A DNA stretch of 4,631 nt from a virus. Taxonomy: Duplodnaviria > Heunggongvirae > Uroviricota > Caudoviricetes. A program made the translations under genes and the position numbers. The stretch lies in the IMG/VR virus record IMGVR_UViG_2693429642_000016; one strand, 5' to 3'. The notes beneath the pieces were generated by a model. It was given only the letters and a program-made list of their open reading frames with translations, was not told where the DNA came from and ran no database searches. Positions 1 to 4,631 of the stretch are shown in pieces (position 1 is the stretch's first letter; each line of letters opens with the position of its first letter).

Positions 1-46
1 ATATCCGACTTCTGTACGGAATGGCAAGTGGCGGTTAATTTATTCA

Positions 47-54
47 GGGGAAGG
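47..54 (+). promoter_or_regulatory. Shine-Dalgarno / ribosome-binding site for J
   Basis: Seen in sequence: purine-rich GGGGAAGG at 47..54, with a 4-nt spacer before the ATG at 59. Confidence 0.5.
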
Positions 55-58
55 CTGT

Positions 59-3000
59 ATGGGAAAAGGTGGCGGTAAGGCACACACGCCTCGTGAGGCG
101 AAGGATAATCTCAAATCCACGCAGATGATGAGCGTGATTGATGCGATTGGTGAGGGACCCATTGAAGGTCCGGTGAAAGGCCTGCAGAGTATTCTGGTGA
201 ACAAAACCCCGCTGACGGACACGGACGGTAATCCCGTGATACACGGTGTGACCGCGGTCTGGCGCGCCGGGGAGCAGGAGCAGACACCACCGGAAGGCTT
301 TGAGTCCTCCGGAGCTGAAACTGTACTGGGTGTGGAAGTGACGAAGGCAAAACCGGTGACACGCACCATTACGTCAGCGAACATTGACCGCCTGCGGGTG
401 ACCTTCGGGGTGCAGTCACTGGTGGAGACCACCTCAAAGGGTGACCGTAACCCGACGTCTGTCCGCCTGCTGATTCAGCTTGAGCGTGGTGGTAAATGGA
501 TGACGGAAAAGGATGTCACCATTAACGGCAAGACCACCTCGCAGTTCCTGGCGTCGGTGATTCTGGATAATCTGCCGCCCCGGCCCTTTAACATCCGGAT
601 GGTCAGGGAGACGGCGGACAGCACCACGGACCAGCTGCAGAATAAGACGCTCTGGTCGTCATACACCGAAATCATCGATGTGAAACAGTGCTACCCGAAC
701 ACGGCCATTGTGGGGCTGCAGGTGGATGCGGAGCAGTTCGGCGGCCAGCAGATGACGGTGAACTACCATATCCGCGGTCGCATCATCCAGGTGCCGTCAA
801 ACTATGACCCGGAAAAACGCACGTACAGTGGTATCTGGGACGGCAGTCTGAAACCGGCATACAGCAACAACCCGGCCTGGTGTCTGTGGGACATGCTGAC
901 TCACCCGCGCTACGGGATGGGAAAACGTCTGGGGGCGGCGGATGTGGACAAGTGGGCGCTGTATGCCATCGGGCAGTACTGCGACCAGACGGTCCCGGAT
1001 GGTTTCGGGGGCACAGAGCCGCGGATGACCTTTAATGCGTACCTGGCACAACAGCGTAAGGCGTGGGACGTTCTCAGTGATTTCTGCTCGGCGATGCGCT
1101 GTATGCCGGTATGGAACGGCCAGACGCTGACGTTCGTTCAGGACCGCACGTCGGATGTGGTGTGGCCGTACACCAACAGCGATGTGGTGGTGGATGATAA
1201 CGGCGTGGGGTTCCGCTACAGCTTCAGTGCCCTGAAGGACCGGCACACGGCGGTGGAGGTGAATTACACCGACCCGCAGAACGGCTGGCAGACCTCCACG
1301 GAACTGGTGGAAGACCCGGAAGCCATACTGCGCTACGGACGCAACCTGCTGAAGATGGATGCGTTCGGCTGCACCAGTCGCGGTCAGGCCCACCGTGCCG
1401 GGCTGTGGGTGATAAAGACAGAACTGCTGGAAACGCAGACGGTGGATTTCACACTCGGGTCACAGGGGCTGCGGCACACACCCGGTGACATCATTGAAAT
1501 CTGTGATAACGACTATGCCGGAACCCTGACCGGCGGACGTGTCCTGTCCATTGATGCTGCCACCCGCACCCTGACGCTGGACCGTGAAGTGACACTTCCG
1601 GGGACAGGTACATCGACGGTGAACCTGATTAACGGCAGCGGTAAGCCGGTGAGTGTGGACATCACCGCACACCCCGCGCCGGACCGGATACAGGTCAGTA
1701 CCCTGCCTGATGGTGTGGAGACATACGGGGTGTGGGGACTCTCCCTGCCGTCACTGCGCCGTCGCCTGTTCCGCTGTGTCTCCATCCGGGAAAACACGGA
1801 CGGCACCTTTGCCATCACGGCAGTGCAGCACGTACCGGAAAAAGAAGCCATTGTGGATAACGGAGCCCGCTTTGAGCCGCAGTCAGGCACCCTGAACAGC
1901 GTTATCCCACCGGCAGTGCAGCACCTGACGGTGGAGGTGAGCGCAGCTGACGGCCAGTATCTGGCGCTGGCGAAATGGGACACGCCGCGGGTGGTGAAGG
2001 GCGTGCGCTTCAGTCTGCGCCTGACCAGTGGAAGCGGTGAGAACAGCCGCCTGCTGACCACCGCCATCACTGCCGATACGGAGCACCGTTTCAGTGGCCT
2101 GCCTCTCGGGGAATACACCCTGACGGTCAGGGCGATTAACAGCTATGGCCAGCAGGGCGAACCCGCCACCACCACGTTCCGGATTAACGCACCGGCAGCG
2201 CCTGCCGGTGTTGAACTGACGCCGGGGTATTTTCAGATAACGGCGGTACCGCGTCTTGCGGTGTATGACCCGACGGTGCAGTTTGAGTTCTGGTTTTCGG
2301 AGGCAAAAATTGCAGACGCCGCACAGGTGGAAACCTCTGCCCGTTATCTGGGGACCGGCAGTCAGTGGAGTGTCTCCGGTCCGCACATTAAGCCCGGAAA
2401 GGATTTCTGGTTTTATGTGCGCAGCGTCAACCTGGTGGGTAAATCTGCTTTTGTGGAAGCCAGTGGACGGGCGAGCAATGATGCTGCGGGCTATCTGGAA
2501 CTTTTCCGGGAAAAGATAGGAAAACTGCATCTGGCAGAGGCGCTGTGGGCAGAGATTGACAACAGTCAGCTGAAGGACGAGATGGCGGAAATGCAGACCA
2601 CCATCACAGAAACCCGCAATGAAATCACACAGACGGTCAGTAAAACGCTGGAGGACCAGAGCGCCACCATACAGCAAATCCAGCGCGTGCAGAAGGACAC
2701 AAATGATGACCTTGCTGCACTTTACATGCTGAAGGTACAGAAAACAAAAAATGGCATACCCTATGTTGCCGGTATTGGAGCGGGGATTGAGGATACTGAT
2801 GGCCAGCCCCTGAGCAACATACTGCTGCTGGCTGACCGTATTGCGATGATTAACCCGGAGGACGGCAACACCACGCCGTTATTTGTGGCGCAGGGGAATC
2901 AGTTGTTCATGAACGATGTGTTCCTGAAGCGGCTGTTTGCGGTGAGTATCACCTCGTCCGGCAATCCCCCTACGTTCTCCCTGACGCCGGAAGGCAGGCT

Positions 3001-3589
3001 GACGGCCCGTAATGCGGATATCAGCGGACATATCAGTGCGAACTCGGGCACGCTGAATAATGTCGTGATAGCGGAGAACTGTACCATCAAAGGTACTCTG
3101 AGAGCGGAAAATATCATTGGCGATGTGGTGAAAACGCACAATGTCAGTCTTCCTGATCTCAGGGCTGCAGGGGAGCACAGACACGCGACAGAACGAACGG
3201 TTACTGTCATTGATGATCAGTCGTTTGACCGGAATATTGTTATCCCGCCGGTTTTTTATTCCGGTATTATCTACAAAGGAAGTGATGGTGACGGTGCGAC
3301 CTCAATCTGTACGCTGACGGTGAGTGTGAATGATCGGGTGGTGTTCAGCAAAACCTCATCCATCGGTACCAGGCGTACGTCAGGGGGATACCCCGTTCAG
3401 GAAGACACCATATATCCCGGGTCATCCACTCCGTTCAGCTATTTCATGAGGATGGCGTCAGGGGGAGGTGATGTCAGGATCAAGTTCCGGATTGAGGTCA
3501 TCTATTATGGAACTGCACCGGGTTTTATGACCACAGGGATACAGATCACAACGATGAAGGCGTCAGCTTCAGGATTTGTGGAAAGTTAA
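59..3589 (+). CDS. J: Tail tip attachment / host specificity protein (lambda gpJ family, central tail fibre), 1176 aa
   Basis: Seen: single uninterrupted ORF, ATG at 59, TAA at 3587..3589. Established knowledge (from memory): N-terminus [22 protein letters not shown]...[15 protein letters not shown] closely matches lambda J ([22 protein letters not shown]...), and collinear similarity continues through most of the protein (e.g. [115 protein letters not shown]). The size is typical of J (lambda J is about 1130 aa). The C-terminal part from about nt 3130 diverges from lambda. Confidence 0.95.
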
Positions 3590-3958
3590 TCCCGGACGAT
3601 CGTGATTGCCGGAAGGAGACAAAAACCGCACAGTATGCGCGGGTGCCTTTGGCTGATGGCCGGAGGGAACACCTGAAAGCCTGATGTGAAAAGGCCCCGA
3701 GTCAACTTCAATGTTAACCCGAGGCCCTGATCCGTCTATCTTAAGCAAGTGGCAGGTTAGCGCCTCTCCGTAATAAGGAGCAAGTGCTGTGTCGCAAAAA
3801 CCACCGTGATTTGTATCACTGTAGTGCTCATTATCTGGATCACCCACCGTTCACTGTGTGAATTCCGGTTCCGGATAGCACCTTTTTAATCCTGTAAACC
3901 ACGATTTTTACCGCAGACCGGGAAACCGGCACTGCGGTTTTTTTTATGGGGAAAATCT
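3590..3958 (+). other. Non-coding J-stf spacer (moron-like or decayed-gene region); no credible protein-coding ORF
   Basis: Seen: 369 bp with no + strand ORF of 60 codons or more. The only minus-strand ORF (3569..3847) starts with GTG, has no SD and overlaps the J stop. The spacer contains two consensus AAGGAG motifs (3613..3618, 3775..3780) not followed by substantial ORFs, a TAATAAGGAG motif (3771..3780), and a terminal intrinsic terminator. Established knowledge: lambda carries lom between J and stf. Confidence 0.5.
3911..3945 (+). terminator. Rho-independent (intrinsic) terminator, + strand
   Basis: Seen: GC-rich hairpin CCGCAG-A-CCGG-[GAAA]-CCGG-CA-CTGCGG (3911..3937): 6-bp outer stem, small internal loop, 4-bp inner stem, GAAA tetraloop. 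It is followed immediately by T8 (3938..3945). The reverse complement has no U-tract after the stem, so it is unidirectional on the + strand. Confidence 0.7.
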
Positions 3959-4510
3959 ATGACAGTCAGAATATCGGGCGTGCTGAAGGACGGCACCGGG
4001 AAGCCGGTGCCGGGATGCACCATAGAGCTGAAAGCGCGACGCACCACAGAGACAGTGATAGTCACCACGGTGGCGCAGGGGCAGCCGGGGGAAACCGGCA
4101 GTTACAGTTTTGATGTGGAGCCGGGGTGGTACCGGGTGACGCTGAACACGGAAGGGTACGCCCCGTCGTATGTGGGTGACATTCTGGTGAAGGCGGATTC
4201 TGAGCCGGGAACGCTGAATAAATTTCTGATGGAACAGGATGAGGCGCAGTATTACCCGAAAGCGCTTGCAGAGCTGGAAGCGGTGGCAGCGGAAATCCTG
4301 AAGCGTGCTGAAGCGTCGGCGGCGAGTGCAGAGGAAGCGAAGAAACGGGCAGAGAATGCCCGGGGACCGGCGGGCGAGAAGGGGGACACAGGTCCACAGG
4401 GTGCCACAGGGGCACAGGGACCAGCCGGGGCAACGGGGGCGGTCGGACCAAAAGGTGAGCCGGGGCCATTCATATTTCCTCCGCATGTTGCCCGGGCAAT
4501 TCTAGAGTAG
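3959..4510 (+). CDS. stf: Side tail fibre protein, N-terminal Stf-like domain plus collagen-like repeat; 183 aa, probably truncated or a gene fragment
   Basis: Seen: ATG 3959, TAG 4508..4510, weak purine-rich RBS GGGGAAAA at 3948..3955. Established knowledge (from memory): the N-terminus [28 protein letters not shown] matches lambda Stf ([28 protein letters not shown]), and similarity continues through ...EPGTLNKFL. Inference: 183 aa is far shorter than a full side tail fibre (lambda Stf is 774 aa), and the Gly-X-Y pattern breaks 14 codons before the stop, so this looks like a truncated or joined gene. Confidence 0.8.
4364..4468 (+). repeat. Collagen-like Gly-X-Y triplet repeat (protein-level) within stf
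   Basis: Seen: translation [35 protein letters not shown] has Gly at every third position for about 11 consecutive triplets and is GC-rich. The pattern ends after codon 4466..4468. Confidence 0.8.
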
Positions 4511-4519
4511 CGGGATCAG

Positions 4520-4631
4520 ATGGCAATCGCTTATTGGCAAAATGACAATTTTGTCATTTTCCTGTCACCGGAAAATCAGAGCCTGGCGAGTAAAGTTGGC
4601 AGCATAAAATCACCAGAAATTATGAGCCTAT
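4520..4631 (+). CDS. Hypothetical protein, 5' partial (runs off window end); function unknown
   Basis: Seen: ATG at 4520, open to the window end (MAIAYWQNDNFVIFLSPENQSLASKVGSIKSPEIMSL...), in the same frame as stf and 9 nt after its TAG. No convincing SD (CGGGATCAG upstream). I do not recognise the N-terminus. Only 37 codons are visible, so confidence that it is a real gene is low. Confidence 0.35.
   Translation, partial: MAIAYWQNDNFVIFLSPENQSLASKVGSIKSPEIMSL
4539..4576. repeat. Two overlapping inverted repeats (possible protein-binding site or RNA hairpins)
   Basis: Seen: AAAATGACAA-tt-TTGTCATTTT (4539..4560; 10-bp arms, 2-bp spacer), overlapping ATTTTCC-tgtcacc-GGAAAAT (4556..4576; 7-bp arms, 7-nt loop). 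The symmetry is directly visible; the function is unknown. Confidence 0.5.

Follow-up and report, generated by a model that had tools for sequence, protein, structure and literature searches.

Side tail fibre (Stf) proteins of the lambda type, represented by lambda orf-401/orf-314 and annotated in E. coli as 'prophage tail fiber N-terminal domain-containing protein' (PF08400), constitute the family with which the locus described here was compared. Members of this family have the N-terminal domain PF08400, followed by a collagen-like Gly-X-Y shaft and a distal receptor-binding region, with a total length of 400-520 aa, and their gene is followed by a Tfa/DUF4376 gene. The second system of comparison is the divergent promoter region between cusRS and cusCFBA, in which a CusR box is located between the two promoters. 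The CusR box has been described in two texts (bioRxiv 10.1101/2023.09.26.559466; PMC10920338), which cite Yamamoto & Ishihama 2005.

The window, i.e., the whole stretch of DNA that was analysed (4631 nt), is the complete draft contig CDQY01000741.1 of assembly GCA_000941535.1, a fragmented draft in which, by its accession suffix, the contig is at least the 741st record. It contains one part of each of the two systems. The order of domains (phage_tail_N, then collagen) and the position after gpJ are the same as in lambda-type Stf, and over residues 1-170 the identity is 100% with the Stf of both the LZSFT34 prophage and phage PhiR12_1 and about 99% with ORF-401 of P-EibA. However, the stf gene of the window lacks the collagen repeats after codon 170 and the distal domain, and it is not followed by the DUF4376 gene that is present in every full relative. 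The cus promoter region is represented by the palindrome AAAATGACAAttTTGTCATTTT, which is exact, and by divergent promoter-like hexamers on both strands; the difference from the known locus is that phage DNA is present where the body of cusR would stand. The features of the phage part are as follows.

59..3589, plus strand: gpJ, tail-tip host-specificity protein, 1176 aa (ORF list, Pfam, prophage match)
3641..3889, plus strand: Hok/sok-like module between J and stf (Rfam, Pfam, annotation of relatives)
3641-3800: sok-like region (sub-threshold match to Rfam sok RF01794: 32.5 bits, E 1e-4, gathering score 59)
3806-3889, plus strand: Hok-like ORF, 27 aa, GTG start (Pfam HOK_GEF, 25.9 bits, cutoff 22)
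3959..4468, plus strand: 5' part of stf, codons 1-170 (N-terminal domain and first collagen-like Gly-X-Y repeats)

Three ORFs were called in the window, namely gpJ (59-3589), the 27-aa Hok-like ORF (3806-3889) and an ORF of 183 aa (3959-4510). The presence of gpJ, with the Pfam domains FNIII-A_GpJ, Phage-tail_3, Ig_J, Phage_Tail_Tip and Ig_GpJ_C, identifies the left part of the window as the tail module of a lambdoid prophage, and positions 1-4468 in their entirety are such a module, consisting of gpJ, the Hok/sok-like module and stf codons 1-170. The gpJ–stf region of the NCTC9112 prophage is 98.4% identical to the window. At the left edge, the homology of NCTC9112, LZSFT34 and PhiR12_1 is lost upstream of the gpJ start codon at position 59, which is ATG in the window and GTG in these three relatives, whereas prophages of the SW071611 type match the window from base 1. 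Judged from these alignments, the break at 1-59 is a normal lambdoid mosaic boundary at the start of a gene.

In the relatives, the equivalent of 3641-3889 is annotated as 'Hok/Gef family protein'. The 27-aa ORF of the window aligns with positions 9-30 of the Hok/Gef profile only and is possibly a truncated or degenerate toxin. The slot between J and stf holds lom in some related prophages, e.g., P-EibA and the SW071611 type, and the exact Hok/sok variant of the window was found in only two complete genomes, LZSFT34 and NCTC9112. Just 5' of the stf start, at 3911-3946, an inverted repeat rich in GC (ACCGCAG…CTGCGGT) precedes eight T residues and resembles an intrinsic terminator located behind the hok module; the scan did not list this repeat, probably because its loop exceeds the limit of the scan.

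The 183-aa ORF has a full-length profile match to PF08400 (phage_tail_N) over aa 1-134 (E 1.7e-43), and Pfam collagen repeats over aa 135-169, so that the conserved N-terminal domain and the collagen-like repeats described in the original prediction, which had been made from the sequence without database searches, could be confirmed. The shaft and the distal receptor-binding region are reduced to 12 Gly-X-Y triplets (aa 135-170), and cus intergenic DNA takes the place of the downstream Tfa/DUF4376 gene. The last codon in Gly-X-Y phase is CCA (4466-4468), exactly where the repeat pattern had been said to stop, and it is followed by 13 unrelated codons and the TAG at 4508-4510, again as had been predicted. 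Up to 4468, stf has no mismatch to E. coli LZSFT34 and phage PhiR12_1 and two mismatches to orf-401 of P-EibA; past 4468, about 80% of the positions differ between the window and the stf genes of the relatives.

The region 3850-4631 was compared by megablast with 5426 complete E. coli genomes and 50,697 phage records, and a search with the whole window was also performed. The stf matches among the closest relatives have identities of 96-100% and all end at 4468, and in the whole-window search the prophage homology likewise stops at this base. Eight of the 50,697 phage records match the query, all of them on stf only and none beyond 4468. At the protein level, a search of 5.8 billion protein clusters gave best matches that span exactly 93% of the 183-aa ORF, i.e., aa 1-170, and no high-identity protein that reaches the tail of the ORF beyond aa 170. 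The intact stf sequence 3' of 4468 reads ...AAGGGAGAACGG, and all four relatives carry on alike past the breakpoint (…GGGGCCA AAGGGAGAACGGGGAGAAACAGG…) with further Gly-X-Y repeats, giving a full Stf of 473-520 aa; the next gene, DUF4376/ORF-191A, is probably the one for tail-fibre assembly. A natural mosaic boundary among stf alleles at 4468 was considered and rejected, as the four relatives are identical for at least 95 nt beyond this position.

The DNA beyond 4468 is unrelated to the phage part. The junction and the features to its right are as follows.

4468..4469, no strand: blunt junction between phage and core-chromosome DNA (three-way alignment)
4469..4473, minus strand: first 5 nt (ATGAA) of cusR, the remainder of which is absent from the window (Nissle annotation, reverse-complement comparison)
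4474..4629, no strand: cusR–cusC intergenic control region, 156 nt (identity with Nissle 1917)
4478-4482, minus strand: cusR Shine-Dalgarno motif GGAGG
4499-4526, minus strand: PcusR-like promoter hexamers (hexamer scan)
4508..4510, plus strand: TAG that ends the fused stf' frame, inside non-coding cus DNA (reference annotation, alignment)
4520..4630, plus strand: 'resuming' open frame of 37 codons, overlapping the CusR box and the promoter of cusC (chance frame)
4539-4560, no strand: CusR box AAAATGACAANNTTGTCATTTT (exact match)
4596-4623, plus strand: PcusC-like promoter hexamers (hexamer scan)
4630..4631, plus strand: first 2 nt of the cusC start codon, and end of the contig (cusC start of Nissle 1917 at L002 3162, equivalent to window 4630)

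The segment 4469-4631 is the divergent promoter region between cusR and cusC of the E. coli core chromosome, which belongs to the copper/silver system. It was found in 5334 of the 5426 complete E. coli genomes, with 100% identity in many strains, among them Nissle 1917 and ATCC 11775, and the 15 best matches are all situated at a locus annotated as cusR and cusC. A direct comparison with the locus of Nissle 1917 (L002 3001-3163) revealed that 163 of 163 nt are identical, with the cusR boundary at L002 3005, equivalent to window 4473. The segment is present at a median of one place per complete E. coli genome, with a maximum of two. The CusR box AAAATGACAANNTTGTCATTTT occurs exactly (none of 200 shuffles matched), the published CusR-binding palindrome AAAATGACAAnnTTGTCATTTT is copied without change at 4539-4560, and the box is located between divergent promoters, as is typical of the cusR–cusC regulatory region. 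The flanking genes are represented by only 5 nt of cusR and, at the end of the contig, 2 nt of cusC. The fragment is thus bounded nearly start to start (cusR +5, cusC +2), neither end being more than 5 nt from a start codon. These bounds are predicted by none of the models tested; they may be due to chance, or the fragment may be a defined one, such as an intergenic amplicon or a repeat edge in an assembly graph.

Because 4469-4631 is non-coding cus DNA, the TAG is a chance stop in regulatory DNA, and the ORF that starts at 4520 is a chance reading frame and not a gene. The original prediction had pointed out that an ORF in the same frame starts at 4520 and meets no stop up to the end of the window. 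This is accurate, as the ATG at 4520 is in the frame of stf ((4520-3959) mod 3 = 0) and the frame is open to 4630, and it is compatible with chance, as the frame is equally free of stops in 7.5% of mononucleotide shuffles of 4520-4630. A Pfam search with the downstream frame gave no match, and the annotation of Nissle 1917, the reference genome examined, has no CDS in the cusR–cusC interval. The DNA beyond 4470 had also been proposed as the best candidate for accessory cargo. This proposal had to be abandoned, since a segment present in nearly all complete E. coli genomes is core chromosome, and it is missing from all 50,697 phage records, beside stf and elsewhere; a moron would be absent from the core genome and carried by phages at the equivalent position.

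A two-gene arrangement shared with related phages, the other outcome allowed for, was not found either, as none of them carries an intact, identical 183-aa gene. Protein look-ups, a cluster listing and a homology search located the exact 183-aa product and the exact gpJ on this contig only. In the 5426 complete E. coli genomes there was no place that spans the junction with a coverage of at least 80%, and exact scans of the GTDB species representatives, the JGI metagenome contigs and IMG/VR did not contain the 26-mer across the junction. The scope of the uniqueness statement is about 15 billion proteins, the 5426 complete E. coli genomes, the GTDB representatives, the JGI metagenomes and IMG/VR.

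The analysis demonstrated that two stretches of E. coli DNA, unrelated to each other and each of them well known, abut at 4468/4469. Phage homology runs to 4468, and from 4469 there is 100% identity to an unrelated sequence, so that the break is real and exact to the base; the nucleotide alignment to related prophages thus sharpened the breakpoint that had been placed near 4468. The visible shift to AT-rich DNA corresponds to a decrease in GC content from 0.70 in 4306-4468 to 0.44 in 4469-4631. Hence, one half of the first model of the original prediction, a recombination or deletion junction, has stood, while its other half, the replacement of the distal fibre by unrelated cargo, has not. In the three-way alignment, stf reads ...GGGGCCA/AAGGGAG, the cus locus ...CAACAGT/TTCATAT, and the window ...GGGGCCA/TTCATAT, and the two parental sequences share no base at the junction, i.e., there is no microhomology.

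Several origins of the junction were tried and discarded. A collapse of repeats in a De Bruijn graph (a k-mer mis-join) is excluded by the zero shared bases at the join, and a chimera formed by template switching during PCR is unlikely in the absence of 3' microhomology. The attR of a prophage inserted into cusR can be rejected as well, because the phage side of the join lies inside stf, and in all relatives the gene runs on past this point, which therefore cannot be an attP. A Keio-type recombineering scar at cusR was rejected, as the join has no apparent resemblance to the P1/FRT priming sequence. With no shared base at the join, the remaining origins are an event in vivo that was independent of homology, or a chimeric fragment or forced extension that arose in vitro or in silico.

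The join is most likely the chimeric end of a short draft contig and absent from the cell, with a probability of roughly 0.6. The 163-nt cus fragment could have been attached via chimeric library fragments or by local contig extension or gap filling, and the point of attachment would be the collagen-like repeats, at which the phage contig would have ended anyway. Whatever the origin of the join, the stf frame of the window runs 13 codons into non-coding cus DNA until it meets a chance TAG. A chimeric contig end is favoured by the fact that the contig ends only 163 nt past the join and in single-copy DNA, where a true adjacency should have been assembled onward. The join lies within the Gly-X-Y repeat zone, in which many draft contigs terminate, and partial Stf proteins end at the window equivalents of 4384-4471 and beyond, although the map of these ends is weak evidence, as clustering at 90% biases the length of fragments. 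In addition, the 183-aa product and the junction are known from this single draft contig. Nevertheless, a repeat or k-mer common to both parents is not present at the join, so that chimeric reads or a forced join would be needed, which are rarer. Furthermore, the geometry suits a real event, and it was estimated that a random partner would fit in only a few percent of cases.

This geometry is one argument for the second explanation, which is possible but only about half as well favoured: the junction might be a real, homology-free deletion of roughly 13 kb or more that started in a lambdoid prophage at the argU (DLP12) site. The deletion would, with the same limited plausibility, have removed distal stf, tfa, attR, ompT, ybcH, nfrA, nfrB, cusS, and cusR minus 5 nt. 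In Nissle 1917, the order is argU tRNA-Arg, an integrase fragment, a tail-fibre-assembly fragment (plus strand), a methyltransferase gene, ompT, ybcH, nfrA, nfrB, cusS, cusR and cusC. The tail-fibre end of the argU remnant faces cus, which lies about 11 kb away, and the relative orientation is that of the window; one co-linear deletion would yield exactly this join. A further point in favour of the deletion is that it would remove only accessory or non-essential genes, as established for the K-12 DLP12–cus region. Internal decay of a prophage has occurred at the same locus in Nissle, where the integrase fragment abuts the tfa fragment, truncated stf genes occur in long-read assemblies, and the blunt junction excludes a k-mer collapse.

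On the other hand, a deletion does not explain why the contig ends 163 nt past the join although cusCFBA is single-copy, nor why the junction is unique to one draft contig, and an endpoint in a repeat zone that breaks assemblies would be a mere coincidence. The closest related prophages are located at potB/pepT and yodB/zinT, and not at argU. A simple deletion requires a J/stf module shortly upstream of ompT; composite queries with the module within about 3.5 kb or within about 7 kb upstream of ompT retrieved no such arrangement from the complete genomes, which also speaks for a chimeric contig end. It should be noted that the query for the 7-kb spacing was 13,146 nt long and that only its ranking was usable, in which the uppermost matches all begin at position 2470 of the query. 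Literature searches for ompT–nfrA–DLP12 deletions and for the accession of the assembly gave no result. If the deletion were real, the prophage would be fibre-less and unable to excise, and cusCFBA would keep its promoter and CusR box without the cognate sensor and regulator.

A third explanation, which is improbable, is that the cus fragment resides in a second, phage-linked context, created by an aberrant excision or by a tandem duplication with the joint stf'/cus. The 163-nt segment would, if this improbable case applied, be a repeat in the assembly graph, and the contig would stop at 4631 for that reason. Thus, the end of the contig inside otherwise single-copy DNA would be accounted for, and so might the two limits of the cus fragment, each no more than 5 nt from a start codon; the orientation also appears compatible with a duplication or excision joint. 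However, no phage record contains cus DNA beside stf, the junction 26-mer is absent from IMG/VR, complete E. coli genomes contain, almost without exception, a single copy of the cus segment, and direct evidence for another cus copy is nil. We know of no att site or prophage immediately downstream of cusA. That the junction is real and represents a capture similar to specialised transduction, or a duplication, with the CusR-controlled promoter and possibly cusCFBA behind a truncated stf, is a shade more improbable still; it would provide a lambdoid prophage with a copper/silver efflux locus as cargo.

The weakest explanation, a longer fibre gene with an amber interruption (a pseudogene, or a readthrough or suppressed allele), is suggested by nothing except the in-frame downstream ATG and the frame that is open to the end of the window, and it can be regarded as refuted, because an amber gene would be one continuous homologous gene across the stop, whereas the DNA past 4468 is 100% cus intergenic DNA, the stf genes of the relatives diverge completely from 4469 onward, no high-identity protein covers the tail, the downstream frame has no Pfam match, and open frames of this length are not rare in shuffled sequences.

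Which of the surviving explanations applies determines the consequences. Only if the junction exists in the cell would the phage lack a functional side tail fibre, as the original prediction had concluded. In that case one strain would harbour a fibre-less, non-excisable prophage and would be devoid of OmpT and of the CusRS sensor, a strain-level curiosity with respect to copper/silver tolerance and omptin loss. If the join is the chimeric end of a contig, the 183-aa 'protein' in public databases is a chimeric prediction, and a change in composition close to the end of a short draft contig needs to be checked against the core genome before any ORF there is interpreted.

In the most similar prophage, that of NCTC9112 (L004 15900-28409), an Eib-like gene with a YadA C-terminal domain is found downstream of stf. 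This prophage is about 10 kb away from hprR/hprS, the paralogues of cusR/cusS, which looks coincidental, as the tail of the window is 100% cus and not hiuH–hprR. In PhiR12_1 (L006 6625-9792), an insert of two genes, a transposase/integrase gene and a gene for an ATP-binding helper, interrupts the tail-fibre assembly region; this insert looks IS21-like. In two NCTC long-read assemblies (L008/L009 8001-10430), a gene with an Eib-like YadA anchor lies about 500 nt past an stf gene of 210 codons; gpJ is broken into about eight small ORFs in L008 and is intact in L009, which suggests frameshifts due to sequencing errors in the former.

Truncated stf genes are known from cryptic E. coli prophages, in which, as in the window, an N-terminal Stf fragment has been left after the loss of the remainder. 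Examples are the 210-aa stf followed by an Eib-like gene in the two NCTC long-read assemblies, and CP027376, in which stf is split into 175 + 346 aa. In these cases the partner of the truncated gene is phage DNA and the assemblies are closed or based on long reads, whereas in the window the partner is the core chromosome and the evidence is one short draft contig. Hendrix & Duda are said to have described, in 1992, a frameshift in the stf gene of lambda PaPa. A further case is the decay of the argU prophage of Nissle 1917, of which, owing to an internal deletion, almost no phage DNA is left (L005 36796-37870), and in which fragments of an integrase gene and of a tail-fibre-assembly gene are joined directly beside ompT…cusRS. 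This fusion implies that deletions do occur in the argU prophage, whose tail-fibre end faces cus. However, the deletion in Nissle is internal to the prophage and has left the flanking ompT–cusRS genes intact, while the deletion that might underlie the window would have removed them. In comparison with the known systems, the locus is no new kind of element, but a strain-specific deletion in the course of prophage decay or an assembly chimera, both pieces of which are already known.
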